Below the pieces are notes generated by a model. The model did no database searches and was not told the origin of the DNA. It saw only the letters and a program-made list of their open reading frames with translations. 64,000 nucleotides of DNA, from the sequence record OR885871; one strand, given 5' to 3'. Source of the stretch: Escherichia phage vB_EcoM_JN03. The translations under genes were made by a program, and so were the position numbers. Positions 18,184 to 49,205 of this stretch are shown in pieces (within the stretch, counting starts at the first letter, position 1; the number at the start of each line of letters is the position of its first letter).

Positions 18184-18247
18184 GTTAAACCCCTTTGGAT
18201 ATTGCCTCTCCAGCACGAGAGGGCATTATCTGCCCTCACCAGTGTAA

Positions 18248-19873
18248 TCATGCGCCTTTACCACCAAAATTGCCGCCGTTATCCTCTAACTCCGGTTTTA
18301 TATCAATTGGACCTGGGCCTGTAGTTGTTACAGGAGTTGCCCCCGCACGTGAGGCGGCGCGGCCAGCGCCTTCAGCATATTTGATGTTGCCTTCAATAGT
18401 CTGCGCAACCGATAATTTATCGCAAATTATTTCAGTTGCCAGTATCTTAGGAACCTTCAAAGTGTTAGACACTTCAAACATTTCACAGATGAGACGCAAC
18501 ACGTTCTGTGCCTGTATCTCAGCCAATTGGGAAAATTTCATCAACGCCGTGCCAGCGACCACATTGGAGTAGTTAGAAGAGTGCAAGTGGTAAACTTCTC
18601 CTGTCTTACGCTGTACTTCAGTCCCGCCGATAGTCAGGTTATGATCGCGCCCCACATAATAACGTTTGTCAAACATCGTCAGATCATAATGATCTTTGAC
18701 TGATTTATTGACCACGTCCCCGTCAGGAAGCATCTGCTTATAAGACCCCGAGGAGTGCATCCAATGGAGACGTTCCCCGCCTGGAGTGTCATCGACCTCC
18801 ATAATATGCCCAGCTCGAGAAGCCATAACATTGTTGTATGGATAACGAGACCCTCCAGCCGAAGGAACCGATACCTCTCCTGTGTTGTCAATATCCTGAA
18901 CACGACCAGAAGGAGGCGGTGTTTCTTGGACTTTCGGGGTACGATCTGGAATAGGTTCAGACCATTTACCGTTTTGTTGTGCCGGAGCTGCTGAAGCTGT
19001 AGTTTCTGGACCTGGCCAACGATAACCCAACACGGATGAGCGGCTAAAACGGCTCACCTTCACCGAATCGGATTGGTTTCCCCCGATACACCAAACGTAG
19101 TTGGCGTCAAATTTCTGAACGAATGCAACGTGACCGAATGTCGGGTTGTTCCCGCGCCGGAACACTACAACAGCGCCGTAACGTGGTTCTGACAGAGGAG
19201 ATCCCCATTGTAGATATGAGCGAGCCAAAGCAGAACGTGTTGATGTATATCCGGCCTGTATCAGAACCCATCCAACAAACGACGCACACCAACTAACTTC
19301 ATCTTCTGAAGCCCCCAGGGAAGTTGTCTTATGATATTCCAATATCCTTGGGTTGTTATTGAACTTACCAGAATATTCTTTGACGCCCAATTCCCCACGA
19401 GCCACGGTCATCCACTTCTCAGGATCATATCCGCCTACTGGTGGTTGTGGATCCGGTTGCGGTTCATCCTCAATCTTAACAGGAACATTCTCGACGGCAT
19501 TATACTTCTGCCTTTCTATAGATTGAACGACCTGACCCAGCGCCAATGGGTTTGTATCTGACCCATCTGTTGGTGTTGCTGCTGGCCATACCCATGCAAT
19601 ACGGATGTTCTGATATGCTTCATCCAAAGCAAACCCCATGACGTCAGAGCCGACAGTGATACCCGTCGGAGACCAGCCTAAACCTGCCGAGGAGGCGTTA
19701 GATGCTGGCATAAGCATTTTACCCCAAGGCAATAATTCTGTAGGCAGGAGAGTGGTATCCTCCGTGTGTACCCCATAGATGCGTACTGCGACGCGCCCGT
19801 TTTGATCGGGATCATTCACGTCTTCAACGCGCCCGTAAAACCAACGCAAGTTGTCTAACATATTGAAACCCAT
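18248..19873 (-). CDS. baseplate hub/central spike protein with CHAP peptidoglycan hydrolase domain (gp5-like)
   Basis: N-terminal gp5-like OB-fold region; central CHAP-type Cys (WCASFVGW) and His (GHVAFV). Confidence 0.55.
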   Translation of the reverse strand: MGFNMLDNLRWFYGRVEDVNDPDQNGRVAVRIYGVHTEDTTLLPTELLPWGKMLMPASNASSAGLGWSPTGITVGSDVMGFALDEAYQNIRIAWVWPAATPTDGSDTNPLALGQVVQSIERQKYNAVENVPVKIEDEPQPDPQPPVGGYDPEKWMTVARGELGVKEYSGKFNNNPRILEYHKTTSLGASEDEVSWCASFVGWVLIQAGYTSTRSALARSYLQWGSPLSEPRYGAVVVFRRGNNPTFGHVAFVQKFDANYVWCIGGNQSDSVKVSRFSRSSVLGYRWPGPETTASAAPAQQNGKWSEPIPDRTPKVQETPPPSGRVQDIDNTGEVSVPSAGGSRYPYNNVMASRAGHIMEVDDTPGGERLHWMHSSGSYKQMLPDGDVVNKSVKDHYDLTMFDKRYYVGRDHNLTIGGTEVQRKTGEVYHLHSSNYSNVVAGTALMKFSQLAEIQAQNVLRLICEMFEVSNTLKVPKILATEIICDKLSVAQTIEGNIKYAEGAGRAASRAGATPVTTTGPGPIDIKPELEDNGGNFGGKGA

Positions 19874-28016: not shown

Positions 28017-28976
28017 ATGTCCTATATTCTTCATATCGAGTCCGGCCTGAAATTTGAAATTGATGGTAAAACCGCTGCTGATCTTCAAGCAGAAATCAAA
28101 GGTGCAGACCTTATCATTGGCAATGTAACATTACGCCGTATGATGGAAGGCGTCCTCCAGTCAGCCAACGGCTTTGAACTCATTGAAGGTCTGAGCCAGG
28201 AAGAGAAAGAAGAAACTCTCGAAGCTCTTGACCGCGCTGAAGCCGAAAAAGTTAAACCGACCGAAGATGCGGGGGTTAAACAGGGCGACGGTGAATCAAA
28301 TCCGGTGATTGACGCCGAAGAAACGGTTGGGCAACCTGTCGGTGATCAAAATTCCCAGACCGTCGAAGACGGTTCTCTTGAAGTCAACAAAGACGGTTCC
28401 ATTTCCCTGGTAGTTGAAGGCGAAGAAGTTCTTGACGAAGAAGCGCAAGCCCGTGCTGAAGAAGTTCGCCGTCGCATGCTGGGCACAACCGTTGCTGAAG
28501 CAATCGCCGACGTTGAAAATCCGAAGGATGATCAGGCTTTAGCGAACGCGAAGGCGGTTCTGGCCAAGAAATCTTCTGAAATGCGCCCTGCATCTTCTAC
28601 CGAAGAACGCAAGCGTCGTCATAACAAGCGTGAAGAAATGGTTGAAGCGGCTCGCGCATCCAATTATGGTCCTATCCTGGCTGCGGTTGAATCGGGGGTT
28701 GTGCCTGGGGTTTATTTGAGCTATGTGAATCCGGATATGCGCTGGTTCCAGTTCCCTGTTACCGAATTGGCAGATGAAGCCAATCCACACGCCCGCACCA
28801 ATACTTATGTTGATCTGGCGCCGATCGTTTCCGGCGGCTGGGGGTTCAGTCTGTATGTGAATGGTAAATCATTCACCAAACGCCAGAAAATCAAAGAAAC
28901 TGATGCCGAATCTCTGGTGAAAGCAATCAATGAATGGTTACCACAGGCGTTGGCCGAAGCGAAAGCTGCTGCGTAA
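28017..28976 (+). CDS. acidic hypothetical protein
   Basis: 319 aa, D/E-rich; followed by terminator. Confidence 0.45.
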   Translation: MSYILHIESGLKFEIDGKTAADLQAEIKGADLIIGNVTLRRMMEGVLQSANGFELIEGLSQEEKEETLEALDRAEAEKVKPTEDAGVKQGDGESNPVIDAEETVGQPVGDQNSQTVEDGSLEVNKDGSISLVVEGEEVLDEEAQARAEEVRRRMLGTTVAEAIADVENPKDDQALANAKAVLAKKSSEMRPASSTEERKRRHNKREEMVEAARASNYGPILAAVESGVVPGVYLSYVNPDMRWFQFPVTELADEANPHARTNTYVDLAPIVSGGWGFSLYVNGKSFTKRQKIKETDAESLVKAINEWLPQALAEAKAAA

Positions 28977-29004
28977 TTTAATTCAGAAGCGTTCAATAGA
29001 TAAA

Positions 29005-29037
29005 GGGGCTGCTATAATAGCAGCTCCTTTTGTTTAT
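29005..29037 (+). terminator. rho-independent terminator
   Basis: GCTGCT-ATAAT-AGCAGC hairpin then TTTTGTTT. Confidence 0.5.
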
Positions 29038-29048
29038 TGGAGCATGTC

Positions 29049-29711
29049 ATGTCTTATTCGCTCAAAGGGCTGTTGAAGCGCCCTGTGCATTTGTTTGTCA
29101 AACCACCTGCTGTAGAAGGGGAATATTCGGCACGAGGAGAGTTGTATTACATTAAAGGCTCCAATGGTAGTGGTAAGTCTACTGTGCCTTCTTATTTGGC
29201 GGAGAATGATCCTCAGGCGTATGTCGTAACCCATAACAGTAAGATCATGCTCACGGTTTGTCCATCTTACAATATTGTCTGTGTCGGTAAATATGACAAG
29301 TCTAAGTCCAAAGGGGTTGATTCTCTGAAGGATACTGAGCAGATGTTGTTCGCGTTGTCTATTGCTGACCAACCAGAATACCTGAAATATGATGTGATTT
29401 TTGAAGGCATCATTCCGTCTACATTATTGAGTTCTTGGATTCCCCGCCTGACACGCCCACCACGTGAATTGGTCGTCCTCTTTATGGATACCCCTCTTGA
29501 AACCTGTATTGCCCGTGTTAAATCGCGTAACGGTGGCGCAGACTTCAATGAAAGTCTGGTGGTCGAGAAGTGGGAGAGAGTTCATGATCACCGTCAACGG
29601 CATAAAGGCTTGTTCCCTACCGTTCCCGCAGGTATGATGAAGTCCGATGGCCTGACTGTAGAGCAGGCTGTTTTTGCGTTTCTCAATCGTGATTTTGGGA
29701 GTATTGATTGA
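29049..29711 (+). CDS. P-loop kinase-like protein
   Basis: Walker A GSNGSGKST and Walker B-like VIFEG; RBS GGAG before ATG 29049; stop overlaps next start. Confidence 0.5.
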   Translation: MSYSLKGLLKRPVHLFVKPPAVEGEYSARGELYYIKGSNGSGKSTVPSYLAENDPQAYVVTHNSKIMLTVCPSYNIVCVGKYDKSKSKGVDSLKDTEQMLFALSIADQPEYLKYDVIFEGIIPSTLLSSWIPRLTRPPRELVVLFMDTPLETCIARVKSRNGGADFNESLVVEKWERVHDHRQRHKGLFPTVPAGMMKSDGLTVEQAVFAFLNRDFGSID

Positions 29712-30751
29712 TGGAAATTTTTGCTCTAAATAATAATGACATGCTTAAGAAAGCTGTGTTGGCTATCCGTGAACACGGGATTGAGTCAGATCCTGGCAAC
29801 GCAGAGATTAACACTGACGGCACTCGTTTTATTGATGGCGTGACGATTACGGTGGCTGACCCTCGAGATCGTTGGTTATCTGTTGAAGGTCGTAATTCAT
29901 CTGCGCTTGCTGCGATTGGTGAAACATTCTGGGTTCTGTCAGGCCGCAATGACATCCGTTTCCTTTCCCGAGTCCTCCCTCGTGCGGTCAACTTCTCGGA
30001 TGATGGCGTAACGTGGCGTGGTGCTTACGGACCACGTCTGTACAACTATGGCCAGCTGGATAGTGTCATCAACCGTTTGCGCAATAACCCCAACACCCGT
30101 CAGGCGTATCTCACCATCTATGATCCAGCTCTGGACTCAGATGAAAGTTTGGCCGCGCATAGTGAAACAGGAGAAGCCAAGACTAAAGACATGATCTGTA
30201 ATCTGGCTTTATTGTTCAGTATAACAGAAGGGCGGTTGAACATCACGGTCATCAATCGAAGTCAGGATGTCCTCTGGGGTATGAGTTCAATCAACTTCAT
30301 TGAATTCTCCATTTTGCAGGAAGTATTGGCGAAGGTGCTGAACGTGGAAGTCGGGAATTATAAACTGTTCTCGAATAACCTTCACTATTATAACAACGAA
30401 GTCAGTCGGAAGCAACTCGGGAACATAACCAACAAGACCCGAACTTCTATTGGTATGTACAATTCTTTGTTGGAATTCTCTTCGGAAAAGGTGAAATGTC
30501 AAGAAAACATCCAAAATCTGTTCCTCGGTGTACTTCATCGCTGTGACATTGGCAGTGAATTTGGTAAAATCAGAGAGCATTTGAAGGAATATAACGCAGA
30601 TACAGGTTTGATGATGGATATGTCATATTGTCTGTGGTGTCGCCTTAATGATACTAAAATTGATAAACGTCGGATTGCTGATGATGGTCTTCGTAATGCG
30701 TTGTTGCAATCACCCGTTGACCGTAAACACATGTGGGGGTATGGGGAATGA
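29711..30751 (+). CDS. thymidylate synthase-family enzyme, divergent (possible pyrimidine hydroxymethylase)
   Basis: ThyA-like blocks GAYGPRLYNYGQ, NPNTRQAYLTIYDP, candidate nucleophile DMICNLALLF, RSQDVLWG. Confidence 0.6.
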   Translation: MEIFALNNNDMLKKAVLAIREHGIESDPGNAEINTDGTRFIDGVTITVADPRDRWLSVEGRNSSALAAIGETFWVLSGRNDIRFLSRVLPRAVNFSDDGVTWRGAYGPRLYNYGQLDSVINRLRNNPNTRQAYLTIYDPALDSDESLAAHSETGEAKTKDMICNLALLFSITEGRLNITVINRSQDVLWGMSSINFIEFSILQEVLAKVLNVEVGNYKLFSNNLHYYNNEVSRKQLGNITNKTRTSIGMYNSLLEFSSEKVKCQENIQNLFLGVLHRCDIGSEFGKIREHLKEYNADTGLMMDMSYCLWCRLNDTKIDKRRIADDGLRNALLQSPVDRKHMWGYGE

Positions 30752-31317
30752 AATACCCTAATCTAGAATTTTTTACGGGGCGCAAGCGCTCCGGCAAGGA
30801 CTTCTGTTTGGAGTCCCTCATCAGCTTTCACCATTTACAGGGTGATATGGACATCCAGCGCTTATCTTTCTCAGACGAGTTGCGTCGGGTGGCTCATTAC
30901 ATCTATCCTTGGTTGCCAGAGGAAGTAGAGGACGACATCAAGGACTTGCCATATGTTCACCCAGATAACCCCAAGGGATTAACCCCAAGGCAGATCTGGC
31001 TTCATCTCGGCAGCGATACGGGCTTGCGTTACGTACAACCAGACCTGTTTCTGTCATTCTTTAAACGATATCAACTTCCTTTGGTGGAACAGAACCCACA
31101 CGTTCATTATATCGTGAGTGATTTGCGCACCCCTCAGGAATATGAATGGGCGCTGAGCACTAAATGTCCCATCACCCGCATTTCAAAGGCGGATCGCGGT
31201 GGTATCATAGAGGATGACATTGAGGCTTTCATTGATAAGATGGAAGTTGATTATGAATTTGTCAATCCGTTTGAAGGTTGGCAACCGTTCGTCAAATTTT
31301 ATAGGGATCGGAAATGA
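30748..31317 (+). CDS. deoxynucleoside monophosphate kinase (T4 gp1-like)
   Basis: P-loop GRKRSGKD at N-terminus; ATGA-coupled to upstream gene. Confidence 0.55.
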   Translation: MKYPNLEFFTGRKRSGKDFCLESLISFHHLQGDMDIQRLSFSDELRRVAHYIYPWLPEEVEDDIKDLPYVHPDNPKGLTPRQIWLHLGSDTGLRYVQPDLFLSFFKRYQLPLVEQNPHVHYIVSDLRTPQEYEWALSTKCPITRISKADRGGIIEDDIEAFIDKMEVDYEFVNPFEGWQPFVKFYRDRK

Positions 31318-31859
31318 TCACAGCAGAGCATATTAAAAGTCTGCTCGAACTTCAAAAGGCCACCAACGTGGCCTATTTTGGGGAAGAGTGGAAGAAGCGC
31401 TGGACCGAAGTGGCGATAGCAAACTCCATCTATCGTGAGTGGGCAGAGTTTCTAGACGAAACAACCATAGACTGGAAGATCTATGGGGGTGGTAAGCATT
31501 GGCGACAAGTGGATGCCATATACGAGTTGGTGGACGTTGTTCACTTCATGCTCTGTGCTGTCCTGCAGGAGGAAGACAAACCACACGATATTCCAGAAAT
31601 GGTGAGATTCGTTCAGGCGCAGCCAATTCAAACCCCTCACGACCTCAGGAAAGTGACTGAACTGTTCACGTATTTCATGTCACACCCTCTTCGGAATGTT
31701 TTGGCTACCTTCTTGGCAGCGGCTTGCGGATATTTGGGGCTGGATGCTGAGACCTACATGCTGGCCCACAAGCGCAAGAACGATCGCAATCGTCTACGTG
31801 CTGCTGGCGGTGCGAACTATGATAAGTCCGCGGAAACCCCTTTGACTCTGGAGTTCTAA
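31314..31859 (+). CDS. all-alpha NTP pyrophosphatase, dimeric dUTPase/dCTPase family (T4 gp56-like)
   Basis: EWAEFLDET...DAIYELVDVVHFM and C-terminal K-x2-N-x2-R-type region; ATGA-coupled. Confidence 0.45.
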   Translation: MITAEHIKSLLELQKATNVAYFGEEWKKRWTEVAIANSIYREWAEFLDETTIDWKIYGGGKHWRQVDAIYELVDVVHFMLCAVLQEEDKPHDIPEMVRFVQAQPIQTPHDLRKVTELFTYFMSHPLRNVLATFLAAACGYLGLDAETYMLAHKRKNDRNRLRAAGGANYDKSAETPLTLEF

Positions 31860-32389
31860 TGTTTACAGTCGTCGTATCATATTACGCGGAACACGCCCCG
31901 CAAATGGCACAGAACTTTGCTGAGTTTATTAAACCTGGCAGACATGTCGTTATCGCGACCAAATTCAACAAAGAACCAGATGGTGCGGCTACTGTAACGC
32001 AACATATTACAACACCAGAGCCGGAAACACTTTTTAAACGCATTGAAGATTTTGCTTTTGGCGGGGAAGAAATTCCAGAGTCATTACAGCATATCTATTT
32101 TGAAGATGCGATATATTATGTTCATGCTATTCCAAAGGATGTTACAACTGAACAAATGATGTATATCCTGAATATCGCATTGAATGTTTCTTGTGTCAAC
32201 AGGGCACAGCACAATCGTCTGCGTAATATGTATTTAACAGAACGCGGGGGTTCCGAAATTAACGATGAAAAACTCCCGTCAATAATGGCGATTCATGAAG
32301 CAATCAATATATTGTCCAAGAAAGTCTTGGGCACCGATTTATTAATTACGATCAACAAGCAAGAGGAAACGAAATGGCCGATTCATTGA
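31859..32389 (+). CDS. hypothetical protein
   Basis: TAATG-coupled ORF. Confidence 0.4.
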   Translation: MFTVVVSYYAEHAPQMAQNFAEFIKPGRHVVIATKFNKEPDGAATVTQHITTPEPETLFKRIEDFAFGGEEIPESLQHIYFEDAIYYVHAIPKDVTTEQMMYILNIALNVSCVNRAQHNRLRNMYLTERGGSEINDEKLPSIMAIHEAINILSKKVLGTDLLITINKQEETKWPIH

Positions 32390-33459
32390 TGGCTCGCATG
32401 CTCAAGACAGCAAAGAAACTGGACCCGAATGCCGAAGTGCTGTCAAAGACCGATGCGCTGAAGCCTGACATTATTTGCAGTACGGGTATTCCTATTCTGA
32501 ATTTGGCCTGGTCCGGTCGTATTGATGGTGGTCTGATATCAGGCATCAAACAGTTGGTGGGGGATTCTCGTACATTCAAAACCATGTTTGGGCTGGTGGA
32601 TGTTAAGGCTTACATGGATAAGTTTCCTGATGCAATTTGTATCTTCGCGGATTCAGAAGGCGGTGCGAATGAAAACTACTGGACATCTATGGGTATTGAC
32701 ATGGACCGTGTCTTGTATCTGCCGATTGAAAACGTTGAAAAGACGAAGATCAAGCTGACACAGCTTCTGAACGATGCACAGAAAGGTGACAAGATCATCG
32801 TATTCATTGACTCAATCAGCCAGTTGCCGTCTACCAAAGAAGTTGATGATGCCATCGCGGGCAAAGACACGCAAGATATGACCCGCGCTCGCGCTCTCAA
32901 TAGTTTTTGGCGTGTTATCACCCCGTTGGTCACTGAAAAGAAATTCGTTTTGGTATGGATCAACTCGTACTATGATGAAATCGGGAACCAATACGCCGAG
33001 CCGAACATCAAAGGCGGTAAACAGGGGTTCCTGTCTTCTAACCAATTGTGGTTCATCACGCGTTCTCAAGTTAAAGAAGACAAAGACCTTTTGGGATGGC
33101 AGTTTACAGTCAACATTATGAAAGGCCGCTTTGTCCGTGAAAAAGCCAAGTTCCCTGTCACTGTGTTGTATGAAGGCGGTATTGACCGTTGGTCCGGTAT
33201 GTTAGAAATTGCGCGCATGCTGGGGTATGTGGATTTGGTGAGTGGTTCTTGGTATCAACGCACTGCCAAAGGCGGGTTTGATCCAGAAAAAGAAAAGAAA
33301 TATCGTAAGGCAGAGCTGGGGGATGACTTCTGGTATCCGCTGCTGGAAAACCCAGACTTTGTTGACGATGTGAACAACATGTTCGGTATCTCTCAGAGTT
33401 CGGTTATGCCTGCAGATATGCTGGAGCGCCTCGATAATGTCATCAAAACAACCGAGTAA
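32374..33459 (+). CDS. uvsX: recombinase UvsX (RecA-like)
   Basis: RecA-fold layout with Walker A GDSRTFKT; RBS AGAGGAAA. Confidence 0.8.
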   Translation: MADSLMARMLKTAKKLDPNAEVLSKTDALKPDIICSTGIPILNLAWSGRIDGGLISGIKQLVGDSRTFKTMFGLVDVKAYMDKFPDAICIFADSEGGANENYWTSMGIDMDRVLYLPIENVEKTKIKLTQLLNDAQKGDKIIVFIDSISQLPSTKEVDDAIAGKDTQDMTRARALNSFWRVITPLVTEKKFVLVWINSYYDEIGNQYAEPNIKGGKQGFLSSNQLWFITRSQVKEDKDLLGWQFTVNIMKGRFVREKAKFPVTVLYEGGIDRWSGMLEIARMLGYVDLVSGSWYQRTAKGGFDPEKEKKYRKAELGDDFWYPLLENPDFVDDVNNMFGISQSSVMPADMLERLDNVIKTTE

Positions 33460-33766
33460 TATTGCAGGGGGAGGAGACTCCCCCGTTAATTACAAAATCA
33501 TCGACCCTGGTTCTGATCAGTTAGCAATAATCGAAATAACGGAAGGCAAATTCCGTGGCGTTCAATTTCGTATAGGGAAAGTGGGTGTCCATTTAGATAA
33601 TGGAGAGCCTCGGTTATCCTTTACAACAGATATATTGAAGAAACCATGGCGTTTGTTATTTGTTAATTTGAAAGAAAATGACTTGTTCACTGTGGTGTCT
33701 GGGGATATCTTAGTTGATCTGATACAGCAAAATGCTCAGGATTACAACAAAATTTTGGTGGGGTAG
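33437..33766 (+). CDS. hypothetical protein
   Basis: Small ORF between uvsX and helicase. Confidence 0.35.
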   Translation: MSSKQPSNIAGGGDSPVNYKIIDPGSDQLAIIEITEGKFRGVQFRIGKVGVHLDNGEPRLSFTTDILKKPWRLLFVNLKENDLFTVVSGDILVDLIQQNAQDYNKILVG

Positions 33767-33772
33767 TTGCCA

Positions 33773-35197
33773 ATGTTACTCGAATCTGTCGTGCTTTCCC
33801 AATTAATCTATAACGAAGAATATCAAAGAAAGATCCAGCCGTATTTGAAAGCCGATTATTTCGATAACGAAGGCGAGAAAATTATATTCGGTCTCATTGA
33901 CCATTACACTTGCGAATATAATGCTCGTCCTTCGGTTGAAGCGTTGTCTATTATGCTGGAAAAGACTTCGCTCAACGAACACGTATTTGAACAAGCTATT
34001 TCTGCTCTTGAGAATATCAATGACAACACATTCCATCAGGAATGGCTTGTAAAAGAAACAGAAAGTTGGGCGCGGCAGAAAGCTGTTCATAATGCGATCA
34101 AACACGCCGTCAACATCTATGGTGATGAGAAACGTAAAGATGAGATGAACACGATTCCAACTCTCCTACAAGAGGCGTTGGCGATAAGTTTTGATTCTTA
34201 TCTTGGCCATATCTATTGGGAAATGGCTGAACAACAATACGACCACATGAACTCTAATGAAGCGAAGATTCCTTTCGCTGTAGAGATATTCAACAAAGCG
34301 ACTCGTGGTGGTGTTGGTAAGAAAACGCTGAACATCGTGACGGGTGCAATTAATGCGGGTAAGACAACAACTCTGATTGATTTGGCTGCTGGTTACTCCG
34401 AGCAAGGGTTGAACGTATTCGTATTCACCCTAGAAGTGGCTGAGAACGTCTGGCGTCACCGCCTTGATGCCCGTATGATGCGCAGGGACTTCGAGTCCTT
34501 AGAGAAGCTCTCACGACATGAATATGTCGCCACGATACAAAAGTTGCGAACTCGTCAAGACGGTTCCATGAAGGGTGATATTGTTATCAAGGAATATCCT
34601 TCAGGCGCTGGGCATACAGGACTATATCGCCGCGATATCCTTGATTATGCGACATCCACGGGAATTACGCCGGACGTCATTATTATAGACTACTTGGGTG
34701 AATCAGCGTCTTCTCGCCTTCCTGCCCATTTAATGCAGAACACCAACGTGTATTATACGTCGGTGGCGCGTGAATTCCGTGCGCTTGGATTTGAATTTGA
34801 TTGCCCTGTATGGACAGGTATGCAATTTAACCGTGAAAAACAATCGGCGACTGATGGTGATATTAGCGACCTGGCAGATGCTATCGGTATTCCGAAGGTT
34901 GCAGACTTCATCATGGCGTTCTATGCCCCTGATGAACTGGCGGCTGTTAAGAAAGCCCGAGCGTCTATCTTGAAAAACCGTTATGCCAATAAACAGAAAC
35001 TCAAATCGTTCTTGTTCGGTATGGATCAAGATAAACAGATATTGTTTGACTTGGATTGGAATGAAGTCAAGCGAGACCTGACAGAAGAGGAAGCCCGTTA
35101 TGTTGAGAATGTTCATATCAAACATGACTTAAACAAAACAGGCGACGTAAATGATGTCAAGAAAGCCGAGACCGTGAATAATTGGAATTTCGGTTAA
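33773..35197 (+). CDS. replicative DnaB-like helicase (T4 gp41-like)
   Basis: Walker A GAINAGKTT; ORF-track start 33767 is TTG. Confidence 0.75.
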   Translation: MLLESVVLSQLIYNEEYQRKIQPYLKADYFDNEGEKIIFGLIDHYTCEYNARPSVEALSIMLEKTSLNEHVFEQAISALENINDNTFHQEWLVKETESWARQKAVHNAIKHAVNIYGDEKRKDEMNTIPTLLQEALAISFDSYLGHIYWEMAEQQYDHMNSNEAKIPFAVEIFNKATRGGVGKKTLNIVTGAINAGKTTTLIDLAAGYSEQGLNVFVFTLEVAENVWRHRLDARMMRRDFESLEKLSRHEYVATIQKLRTRQDGSMKGDIVIKEYPSGAGHTGLYRRDILDYATSTGITPDVIIIDYLGESASSRLPAHLMQNTNVYYTSVAREFRALGFEFDCPVWTGMQFNREKQSATDGDISDLADAIGIPKVADFIMAFYAPDELAAVKKARASILKNRYANKQKLKSFLFGMDQDKQILFDLDWNEVKRDLTEEEARYVENVHIKHDLNKTGDVNDVKKAETVNNWNFG

Positions 35198-47443: not shown

Positions 47444-48064
47444 ATGGCTATGTATTTGCAGGGGAAGTATGTTCCCGTAAATCCCAAGAAATATAAAGGC
47501 GACGTGAACAAAATAGTATTTCGTTCTTCGCTAGAACTTGTCGCCTTTAAATTTTGTGATATGAATCCTGCTATCGTCTATTGGTCTTCAGAAGAAACTG
47601 TAATCCCTTACATATCTCCGGTTGATGGCCGCGCCCATCGTTATTTCATGGATTTGAAGGTTTGGACTCGTCGGCAGGATTCCGATGAATTACAAATTAC
47701 TCTTATTGAAATAAAACCCAAAGACCAGATTAAAGAACCTCGCAAAACTAAAACGATGAAGGAATCAACATTCAATAATTCAATGCGCACTTGGTTGGTA
47801 AATCAGGCAAAGTGGACAGCAACTAAAGAACATTGTGCAAAGGTGGGTTGGAAATTCATTATCTGGACAGAAGAACATTTGGTGCCAGGTGAAGACCCAG
47901 AAGTTAAAAAACAATTTGCTCTTCGTTCTAAGAAAAAGCGCGAAGTCGAAATGGAAGATCGACGCCGCGCTCAAAGGATTAATGCGTTGAAAGAGCAAAT
48001 GAAGAAGGAAACTGCTAATAAACAACCAACGCAATCGGAAGATGATGGTTTGTTATTACCCTGA
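47444..48064 (+). CDS. head completion protein (gp4-like)
   Basis: N-terminal GKYVPVNPKKYKGDVNKIVFRSSLE...IPYISP pattern. Confidence 0.45.
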   Translation: MAMYLQGKYVPVNPKKYKGDVNKIVFRSSLELVAFKFCDMNPAIVYWSSEETVIPYISPVDGRAHRYFMDLKVWTRRQDSDELQITLIEIKPKDQIKEPRKTKTMKESTFNNSMRTWLVNQAKWTATKEHCAKVGWKFIIWTEEHLVPGEDPEVKKQFALRSKKKREVEMEDRRRAQRINALKEQMKKETANKQPTQSEDDGLLLP

Positions 48065-48683: not shown

Positions 48684-49205
48684 TTAATTCCTTACTTTGT
48701 CTGGGTTGGATAAGATTTGTTCGTATCCGACTTCGCCTTGATCGTCGAAAACATGCTGAAGAATCGCCATATCGTCTACCATCCGATAAACTTCAATTCC
48801 AGCGTTCATCAATTTTTTGATTCCATCCATGATACGATATGGCTCTTGATAATATACTTTATCGATCTTGCCGTTGTCGATGATCTTCTGAGTGCAATCA
48901 GGGCATGGGCTATGTGTCACAAACATAACCAACCCTGTGAAATCATCTGCATTTTCGGGGATACGCATTAGAGCATTTTCCTCCGCATGAATGACACACG
49001 GGTTTGTAACAATTTGCCCGTGTTGTTCCATCTCACAAACATTCGGCATGCCAGGAGGCGTTCCGTTCCATCCGATAGCCACAGGCTGATCAGTTTCAGG
49101 GTTTACGATAACACAACCGACTTGCAGACGCCGTGCATAACTGGTTACACCATATGCTGCAGCTGATCGCATATGGGCGAACATCATACGTGGTTTGATA
49201 GCCAT
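48684..49205 (-). CDS. dCMP deaminase
   Basis: Zinc motifs HAEENA and PCPDC. Confidence 0.75.
   Translation of the reverse strand: MAIKPRMMFAHMRSAAAYGVTSYARRLQVGCVIVNPETDQPVAIGWNGTPPGMPNVCEMEQHGQIVTNPCVIHAEENALMRIPENADDFTGLVMFVTHSPCPDCTQKIIDNGKIDKVYYQEPYRIMDGIKKLMNAGIEVYRMVDDMAILQHVFDDQGEVGYEQILSNPDKVRN

Follow-up and report, generated by a model that had tools for sequence, protein, structure and literature searches.

A coupled gene module in Escherichia phage vB_EcoM_JN03 as the probable front end of a ViI-like thymidine hypermodification pathway

The coupled genes and their surroundings

Four plus-strand genes of Escherichia phage vB_EcoM_JN03 form a chain of overlaps, confirmed by an ORF check, within the 64,000-nucleotide stretch of DNA analysed here (sequence record OR885871; hereafter the window). 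They encode a P-loop kinase, a thymidylate synthase (TS)-family enzyme, a dNMP kinase and a pyrophosphatase (Table 1). The first junction reads TGATG, the stop codon of the kinase gene (TGA, 29709-29711) giving its A to the ATG of the TS-family gene at 29711, and the next two read ATGA, at 30748-30751 between the TS-family and dNMP kinase genes and at 31314-31317 between the dNMP kinase and pyrophosphatase genes. An earlier note on this DNA had described the four genes as joined start-to-stop in just this manner, and all three junctions can be read in the sequence, as can the motifs that it quoted (GSNGSGKST, NPNTRQAYLTIYDP, DMICNLALLF, RSQDVLWG and GRKRSGKD), each in the protein to which it had been assigned.

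The chain runs past the fourth gene into an ORF for an ACT-like protein, uvsX (32374), a 109-aa ORF (33437) and the gene for a gp41-type helicase (33767). The counterpart chain in phage ViI comprises eight genes and is the longest overlap run within the 40 kb of ViI examined, and 21 of 52 same-strand neighbour pairs in ViI overlap or abut. Because overlaps are so frequent in a ViI-type genome, coupling alone is no marker of a four-gene functional unit. The module region is 99.9% identical to that of Salmonella phage vB_SenAc_BPS3 (BPS3), a Kuttervirus; the phage of the window is a ViI-like Kuttervirus of the Ackermannviridae, and the family assignments of the module proteins lie far beyond chance.

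Table 1 Features of the module and associated loci in the window
Feature	Position	Strand	Basis
Terminator-like hairpin with T-run	29002-29030	+	13-pair stem, top match in consensus scan
5-hmdU DNA kinase 1 (5-HMUDK; predicted), ViI gp67 ortholog	29049-29711	+	PF18748 HMUDK_HMUD1
TS-superfamily enzyme, putative dUMP 5-hydroxymethyltransferase	29711-30751	+	PF00303, E = 1.8e-15
dNMP kinase, T4 gp1 family	30748-31317	+	phrog_139, E = 2.3e-48
Dimeric-dUTPase / all-alpha NTP pyrophosphatase, T4 gp56 family	31314-31859	+	PF08761, E = 6.4e-9
ACT-like phage protein	31859-32389	+	PF24021 ACT_phage, E = 2.5e-86
dCMP deaminase	48684-49205	-	PF00383, E = 5.2e-17

A terminator-like hairpin, lying after the preceding gene (28017-28976) and ahead of the kinase gene, marks the upstream edge of the coupled run. 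The RNA of this interval (28990-29048) folds at -28.7 kcal/mol (z = -6.9), a value equalled by 0 of 200 shuffles, and ViI carries a near-identical hairpin ahead of its own kinase gene. A scan for sigma-70 promoters returned 24 sites compared to 18.2 ± 3.5 in shuffles; given that it fails to exceed this background, we claim no promoter. Past the module, the ACT-like ORF opens with its ATG in a TAATG overlap with the dUTPase-like gene and is coupled downstream to uvsX. Among the matches listed, the ACT-like protein occurs in Ackermannviridae-type records only, and its gene sits between the dUTPase and uvsX genes in every listed record with annotated neighbours. The protein may act outside the hypermodification pathway discussed below.

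Identity of the encoded enzymes

The earlier note had recognised a P-loop kinase resembling 5-hmdU DNA kinases, a divergent, hydroxymethylase-like member of the TS family, a gp1-like dNMP kinase, a pyrophosphatase of the dimeric dUTPase/dCTPase family and, at a distance, a dCMP deaminase as a possible source of dUMP. Profile, pairwise and PDB searches bear out these identifications.

The first protein covers the whole of the PF18748 profile (positions 1-196 of 196; E = 2.4e-113, 376.8 bits, cut-off 27) and is 95% identical over 220/220 aa to the characterised ViI gp67 (YP_004327432), with an intact Walker A P-loop (GSNGSGKST, aa 37-45) in the same letters as in gp67 and a GGAG 6 nt ahead of its ATG. 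ViI gp67 phosphorylates 5-hmdU in DNA, 5-PmdU being formed on SP8 DNA (PMC8989533). The gene adjoins that of the hydroxymethylase homolog, and 5-HMUDK genes are known to co-associate with genes for dUMP hydroxymethyltransferases (PMC5889632). Taken together, these matches support assignment of the product as a 5-hmdU DNA kinase. A sequence search among solved structures gave nothing significant for this DNA kinase. RefSeq and PHROG-based annotation spread the label 'terminase small subunit' for the 5-hmdU DNA kinase.

A more conventional account would have the module serve ordinary thymidylate metabolism, with a true TS making dTMP, a plain thymidylate or adenylate kinase beside it and canonical DNA as the outcome. 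The first protein does match phrog_761 'thymidylate kinase', weakly (E = 2.6e-5), and database records name genes of this kind 'thymidylate synthase'; against this stand the kinase's membership of the 5-hmdU DNA kinase family and its near-identity to an enzyme that acts on DNA. The second protein likewise departs from ThyA. Its match to PF00303 (57.3 bits, cut-off 24.3) spans residues 67-233 only, and its scores against the NCBIfam ThyA equivalogs range from 35 to 57 bits, far under all of the cut-offs of 108-405 (the best being 57.2, 55.2 and 50.9 bits against 174.55, 327 and 327), so that the profile comparison does not describe an ordinary TS. In a PDB search the CMP hydroxymethylase MilA came first at 1.8e-17, with ThyA at about 1e-6, and BLASTP placed an M6-like 'deoxyuridylate hydroxymethyltransferase' (9e-37) and an Okubovirus homolog (3e-33) far ahead of E. 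coli ThyA (9e-14) and T4 gp42 (2e-6), the most distant reference. The second-best PHROG family of the protein, phrog_5131, holds the enzymes of phi18 and MP1412, which are homologous to the characterised enzymes of SPO1 and M6/YuA but are not themselves the ones assayed. The protein is 93% identical to ViI Vi01_060c, and a published phylogeny likewise placed the enzyme nearer to the hydroxymethylases of hmU phages than to true TS (Kutter 2011, PMC3184105). Databases spread the label 'thymidylate synthase' for this hydroxymethylase.

The residues of the second protein point to the same assignment. The NPNTRQAYLTIYDP, DMICNLALLF and RSQDVLWG blocks begin at aa 126, 160 and 183, the catalytic cysteine is C163, and in an alignment C163, R183, S184, D186, H225 and Y227 are invariant across E. 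coli ThyA, T4 gp42 and the hydroxymethylase homologs. An asparagine at the position where gp42 has aspartate had been noticed by eye in the earlier note and taken to hint at a uracil-type substrate; in our alignment N195 indeed corresponds to N177 of E. coli ThyA and D179 of T4 gp42, and asparagine stands there too in the SPO1-genus and M6-like homologs. This residue bears on the possibility that the enzyme is instead a gp42-like dCMP hydroxymethylase and the DNA contains hydroxymethylcytosine, as might be imagined from a set of hydroxymethylase, gp1-type kinase and gp56-type pyrophosphatase that parallels T4, with the gene in a T4 gene-42-like place ahead of uvsX and gene 41. Such a reading is hardly credible, because the specificity residue is one shared with ThyA and with dUMP hydroxymethylase homologs, no other reference is as distant as gp42, the phage encodes a dCMP deaminase, CBA120 shows no hmC substitution (PMC3184105) and the modified base of ViI is a thymidine analogue. 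We thus infer that the TS-family gene encodes a dUMP 5-hydroxymethyltransferase, which would convert dUMP and CH2-THF to 5-hmdUMP.

To look for a second TS-family gene we used E. coli ThyA and T4 gp42, and not ThyX, as probes; apart from the module gene, none was found in the window or in positions 1-100000 of BPS3, some 2 kb of BPS3 being outside the search. In coliphage EP_H11, which has the nearest homolog outside the family, the overlapping upstream ORF encodes a P-loop AAA_28 protein, not one of PF18748. A zinc site in the C-terminal extension of the second protein (HRCD...CLWC) was considered and rejected, because only three cysteines are conserved in Ackermannviridae, the histidine is variable and the EP_H11 homolog keeps only C310.

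The third protein shares phrog_139 with T4 gp1 (E = 1.8e-65 for the latter), and its GRKRSGKD at aa 11 aligns with gp1 as a GxKRSGKD P-loop, although pairwise its likeness to gp1 is at the motif level only; it is 94% identical to ViI dnk. A sequence search for solved relatives of the dNMP kinase gave nothing significant. By family, it would turn 5-hmdUMP into 5-hmdUDP. Similarly, the fourth protein scores 36.7 bits against PF08761 (cut-off 22.9), falls into phrog_173 (E = 2.4e-42) together with T4 gp56 (5.8e-39), to which its pairwise likeness is again at the motif level only, and is 90% identical to the ViI dUTPase. Its top PDB match is the dimeric dUTPase of C. jejuni (1w2y, 2e-4), with whose counterparts its ExxE and ExxD segments (rEwaEfld and yElvDvvHF) align, segments which we take to be the metal-binding ones of the dimeric dUTPase family. 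The protein is probably a dUTPase that feeds dUMP and possibly also a dTTPase, an additional activity proposed earlier (Kutter 2011, PMC3184105). All four PDB matches of the minus-strand deaminase ORF are deoxycytidylate deaminases, among them 4p9c as the best (1.7e-31) and the T4 enzyme (1vq2, 7e-13).

A probable front end for thymidine hypermodification

In ViI-like Salmonella phages, hydroxymethyluracil replaces thymine and is then decorated to 5-(2-aminoethoxy)methyl-dU (5-NeOmdU), a change that resists host nucleases. Given the assignments above, we consider the module to constitute the conserved front end of thymidine hypermodification in ViI-like Ackermannviridae, with a probability of roughly 0.93. 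Before replication, the unlinked dCMP deaminase and the dUTPase-like pyrophosphatase would provide dUMP, onto which the TS-family enzyme would transfer a hydroxymethyl from methylene-THF to give 5-hmdUMP; the gp1-type kinase would carry this to 5-hmdUDP and the host NDP kinase to 5-hmdUTP, which the phage polymerase would take instead of dTTP. In the polymerised DNA, kinase 1 would then phosphorylate the hydroxymethyl of 5-hmdU to give 5-PmdU, and a gp247-type serine:DNA transferase and a gp226-type PLP decarboxylase, both encoded outside the window, would convert part of the sites to 5-NeOmdU, whereas the sites without 5-NeOmdU would end as thymidine. The pre-replicative scheme has been described (PMC8989533), and the kinase activity of gp67 and gp243, the serine transfer by gp247 and the decarboxylation by gp226 are documented in the literature for close orthologs. 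Homology is the basis for the roles proposed in Ackermannviridae for the hydroxymethylase, dNMP kinase and pyrophosphatase.

The closest known system is the 5-NeOmdU pathway of Salmonella phage ViI (Vi01) and E. coli phage CBA120, phages of the same genus. The four genes of ViI keep this order, the overlapping junctions and the upstream hairpin being the same too, and their products are 95, 93, 94 and 90% identical to those of the module (gp67, Vi01_060c 'thyA', dnk and dUTPase); the two differ by strain-level sequence changes only. Virion DNA of ViI contains 5-NeOmdU (PMC5889632), about 40% of T is replaced in ViI and CBA120, with the genes conserved family-wide (PMC11721090), and CBA120 did not incorporate 3H-thymidine, for which phage the same gene-level conclusion was drawn (PMC3184105). 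The 5-NeOmdU of ViI and the lack of thymidine uptake by CBA120 speak further against ordinary thymidylate metabolism, which we regard as very improbable. Preferring hypermodification, we infer by homology that the DNA of vB_EcoM_JN03 itself is modified, in keeping with the earlier claim that these genes form an enzyme set for non-canonical pyrimidine DNA, which agrees with the published pathway of their ViI orthologs.

The later genes of the pathway lie elsewhere. Using tblastn, no ortholog of ViI gp160 (aGPT-Pplase1), gp226 (PLP decarboxylase), gp243 (kinase 2) or gp247 (serine:DNA transferase) was found within the window, whereas BPS3 holds all four outside the span of the window at 78-93% identity, the gp160 ortholog being the one at 78%; orthologs of aGPT-Pplase1 and aGPT-Pplase2 both occur in BPS3 outside the window. 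Here the pathway is divided among at least three genome regions. With the later enzymes outside the window and less than identical to the ViI proteins, the same front end could lead to a different final chemistry, be it a stop at 5-hmdU as in SPO1, another adduct or another modified fraction, and the fraction does differ within the family, from about 40% in ViI and CBA120 to about 16% in phiHS2, a further Ackermannviridae phage with measured 5-NeOmdU (2026 preprint). Yet the near-identical BPS3 has full-length orthologs of all five ViI hypermodification genes, 5-NeOmdU was present in 3/3 chemically examined Ackermannviridae phages (PMC11721090; 2026 preprint) and ViI virions are free of 5-hmdU (PMC8989533), which makes such a divergence unlikely and favours a pathway that proceeds to 5-NeOmdU.

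Comparison with more distant phages places the module among the hmU systems. The SPO1 group of Bacillus hmU phages has a dUMP hydroxymethylase, dNMP kinase, dCMP deaminase and dTTPase in a pre-replicative pathway of the same logic, with 5-hmdUTP displacing dTTP (PMC8989533), and the module's TS-like enzyme shows 33% identity to the Okubovirus homolog, with which it has the asparagine and an FSDDGV segment in common; however, the C-terminal ~110 residues of the module's enzyme are not alignable, and SPO1-type virions keep 5-hmdU without a 5-hmdU DNA kinase step. In the Pseudomonas M6/YuA-like phages, which make 5-NedU, and in Delftia phage PhiW-14, a 5-HMUDK gene lies beside or near the dUMP hydroxymethyltransferase gene, and the MP1412 proteins are 30% (kinase, E = 8e-16) and 34% (hydroxymethylase) identical to those of the module. 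Unlike in the ViI type, all hypermodification genes of these phages form a single cluster, and their products are the glycine-derived 5-NedU and putrescinyl-T. T4 offers an analogous trio in gp42, the gp1 dNMP kinase and the gp56 dCTPase/dUTPase in a similar genomic position, but the module appears to target uracil and T4 cytosine, and T4 glucosylates after replication whereas the ViI-type pathway phosphorylates and then transfers an amino acid.

Two DNA kinases and the wider meaning

Since the layout of these genes, what it signifies and the DNA chemistry that results had already appeared in print for the genus between 2011 and 2021 (Kutter 2011, Lee 2018/2021), the discovery value of the present analysis is small. 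Regardless, it indicates that a non-canonical DNA pathway can be deduced correctly from the letters of a genome, and it exposes a systematic error in the databases, in which the kinase and the hydroxymethylase both carry misleading names.

The arrangement of the two kinases also invites a conjecture. The gene of kinase 1 (PF18748) belongs to one translational chain with those of the pre-replicative enzymes, uvsX and the helicase, and that of kinase 2 (PF18747) adjoins the gene for the serine:DNA transferase in another part of the genome. It is conceivable, if rather doubtful, that the two 5-hmdU DNA kinases are non-redundant, with kinase 1 working on nascent DNA in other sequence contexts and feeding the branch from 5-hmdU to thymidine, the mechanism of which was termed unknown by Lee et al. 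2018. Kinase 1 would then possibly belong to this thymidine-restoring branch together with the gp160-type aGPT-Pplase1. If true, this division of roles would determine at which T positions, roughly 40% of them, 5-NeOmdU arises. By a related conjecture, the ACT-like protein, whose gene is coupled to the module, might serve as its regulator.

A ViI-like hypermodification module

The four genes at 29049-31859 (+) had been read, in an earlier note, as part of a non-canonical pyrimidine pathway, and this reading is supported: they make up the front end of a thymidine hypermodification pathway like that of the type phage ViI. The start-to-stop overlaps claimed there were borne out by the junctions as read in the sequence (TGATG, where the last base of the kinase stop TGA at 29709-29711 is the A of the ATG at 29711, and ATGA at 30748-30751 between genes 2 and 3 and at 31314-31317 between genes 3 and 4), and the quoted peptide motifs were all found at their expected places. 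The module region is 99.9% identical to that of Salmonella phage vB_SenAc_BPS3 (BPS3; genus Kuttervirus, Ackermannviridae), and nearly all of the 270 matching phage records are ViI-like, with Salmonella, Klebsiella, Escherichia, Dickeya and Shigella hosts. ViI itself (NC_015296) carries the four genes as Vi01_061c, 060c, 059c and 058c, with the order and overlaps of the window and protein identities of 95, 93, 94 and 90%, respectively.

Both the observation and its interpretation have been described before and are already known. Kutter et al. (2011) made the same inference at the gene level for the related E. coli phage CBA120 (PMC3184105), Lee et al. (2018) identified the base and remarked on the kinase-hydroxymethylase association (PMC5889632), and Lee et al. 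(2021) reconstituted the post-replicative steps (PMC8989533); the module genes are also listed in routine Kuttervirus genome papers.

Features of the module and its surroundings in vB_EcoM_JN03
Feature	Coordinates	Strand	Remarks
Hairpin and T-run	29002-29030	+	13-pair GC-rich stem, just before GGAG
Shine-Dalgarno GGAG	29039-29042	+	6 nt 5' of kinase ATG
Gene 1, kinase	29049-29711	+	220 aa
Gene 2, thymidylate synthase (TS)-like	29711-30751	+	346 aa
Gene 3, dNMP kinase	30748-31317	+	189 aa
Gene 4, pyrophosphatase	31314-31859	+	181 aa
ACT-like phage protein	31859-32389	+	PF24021, E=2.5e-86
uvsX	32374-33459	+	member of overlap chain
206-aa ORF	47444-48064	+	TnsA-like endonuclease N-terminal domain, PF08722, E=6.3e-17
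dCMP deaminase	48684-49205	-

The kinase and the TS-like enzyme

Protein 1 matched the whole Pfam profile PF18748 ('5-hmdU DNA kinase') with E=2.4e-113 and a score of 376.8 bits, where the cut-off is 27. Its ViI ortholog, gp67 (YP_004327432), like M6 gp54, converts 5-hmdU in SP8 DNA into 5-phosphomethyl-dU (PMC8989533), and near-identity to this assayed enzyme supports the kinase step predicted for the window. RefSeq and PHROG-based annotations name the kinase gene (in ViI, Vi01_061c; 18204-18866 in record L001) 'terminase small subunit', a label explained by the protein's membership in family phrog_800. Since phrog_800 also contains the M6-like kinase, and the ViI small terminase proper is annotated elsewhere as Vi01_162c, the label is an annotation error. 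The hydroxymethylase gene is likewise carried through records as 'thymidylate synthase', and together the two mislabels amount to systematic misannotation over hundreds of records.

The hairpin upstream of the kinase gene, nearly identical in sequence in ViI, has a fold energy of -28.7 kcal/mol (z=-6.9; 28990-29048). Because in the minimum free energy fold of this segment the stem of this terminator-like hairpin is extended at its lower end into the GGAG, the kinase ribosome-binding site could be partly occluded on a read-through transcript. Coupling of the kinase and TS-like genes is dispensable, since in Salmonella phage 38 an HNH endonuclease ORF (1506-1685 of its record, L012), part of an insertion of ~590 bp, separates the pair and breaks the TGATG junction; the dNMP kinase of that record is annotated in two fragments.

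Several comparisons place protein 2 with the hydroxymethylases and not with ThyA. It matched Pfam Thymidylat_synt over residues 67-233 only (E=1.8e-15) and fell far under every NCBIfam ThyA equivalog cut-off. Its best solved relative was the CMP 5-hydroxymethylase MilA (1.8e-17, versus ~1e-6 for thymidylate synthases). Across phage genomes, similarity fell in steps, from Ackermannviridae orthologs (75-100% identical), through M6/YuA-like 'deoxyuridylate hydroxymethyltransferases' and a SPO1-genus homolog (~33%, 1e-26 to 1e-31), to T4-type td enzymes (~23%, ~1e-6). By BLASTP, the two hydroxymethylase homologs scored 9e-37 and 3e-33, E. coli ThyA 9e-14 and T4 gp42 2e-6; both homologs fall in the second-best PHROG family of protein 2, whereas T4 gp42 is a member of the generic TS family.

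When five sequences were aligned, the catalytic C163 and the core residues R183, S184, D186, H225 and Y227 proved invariant. The by-eye suggestion that an Asn marks a uracil-type substrate held up in this alignment, where N195 lies opposite E. coli N177 and T4 gp42 D179 and is matched by Asn in the two dUMP hydroxymethylase homologs. The C-terminal ~110 aa (residues ~236-346; 30416-30751) are Ackermannviridae-specific, lie outside the Pfam TS domain and could not be aligned with SPO1- or M6-type enzymes; no convincing metal-site pattern was found in this extension, within which C278, C307 and C310 are conserved among Ackermannviridae. Searches with ThyA and T4 gp42 found no second TS-family gene in the window or in BPS3 1-100000.

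In Escherichia phage EP_H11 (107-1899 of its record, L016), which has the nearest TS-like homolog beyond Ackermannviridae (42% identical; 33% in a full-length alignment), a P-loop gene upstream likewise shares 4 nt with the TS-like gene; its product is a member of the AAA_28 family rather than a PF18748 kinase.

Nucleotide supply and later pathway steps

Protein 3 matched phrog_139 ('dNMP kinase') at 2.3e-48, as did T4 gp1 (1.8e-65); the two have a GxKRSGKD P-loop in common and little else aligns pairwise. Protein 4 matched Pfam dUTPase_2 (6.4e-9) and phrog_173, the T4 gp56 family, and its best solved relative, the C. jejuni dimeric dUTPase, lines up with it at the two acidic segments.

In the published two-stage scheme (PMC8989533, PMC5889632, PMC3184105), dCMP deaminase and dUTPase would supply dUMP before replication, the TS homolog would make 5-hmdUMP, and the dNMP kinase of the phage together with the NDP kinase of the host would raise this to 5-hmdUTP, to be used by the phage polymerase instead of dTTP. 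After replication, 5-hmdU in DNA is phosphorylated by the 5-hmdU DNA kinase, gp247 attaches serine through its hydroxyl, and decarboxylation by gp226 gives 5-(2-aminoethoxy)methyl-dU (5-NeOmdU); remaining 5-hmdU sites are turned into thymidine, a conversion whose path was called unknown by Lee et al. (2018; PMC5889632). From homology and conserved residues, we infer that proteins 2, 3 and 4 of the window act as hydroxymethylase, dNMP kinase and pyrophosphatase, respectively. The last of these was proposed by Kutter et al. to double as a dTTPase, because CBA120 failed to incorporate labelled thymidine (PMC3184105). Outside the window, another candidate for this dTTP clearing is a second ViI protein, labelled 'MazG-like pyrophosphatase' (L002, 28725-29588, -), which has no Pfam match, is 85% conserved in BPS3 and adjoins the gene for gp160 (aGPT-Pplase1).

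No later hypermodification genes were found in the window by tblastn with ViI gp160, gp226, gp243 and gp247; orthologs of all four are present in BPS3, beyond the window's span, at 78-93% identity. ViI gp243 is a member of a different Pfam family, '5-hmdU DNA kinase 2'. In ViI and CBA120 the modified base takes the place of about 40% of T, and its genes show family-wide conservation (PMC11721090); in a further Ackermannviridae phage, the share is ~16%. Gene content suggests that the vB_EcoM_JN03 isolate carries the modification as well.

Genomic surroundings

The overlap chain runs on through four genes, namely the ACT-like ORF (coupled to the upstream dUTPase-like gene), uvsX (overlap of 16 nt), a 109-aa ORF and a gp41-type helicase. 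In the 40 kb of ViI examined, where 21 of 52 same-strand neighbour pairs overlap or abut, no other chain is as long as this one of eight genes. Because the chain continues and overlaps are common in the genome, the four-gene module amounts to a functional grouping within a longer, tightly packed operon. The PF24021 protein occurred solely in Ackermannviridae-type records (n=269), lying between dUTPase and uvsX in the listed records with annotated neighbours.

The order at 29711-35197 (hydroxymethylase, then uvsX, a small ORF and the gp41-type helicase) mirrors 42 - b-gt - (segA) - uvsX - 40 - 41 of T4 (L008), with the TS-like gene sitting where T4 has gene 42. NrdA and NrdB genes also lie in the window, and the previously noted dCMP deaminase gene was confirmed; the TnsA-like ORF lies ~600 bp from it, on the opposite strand.
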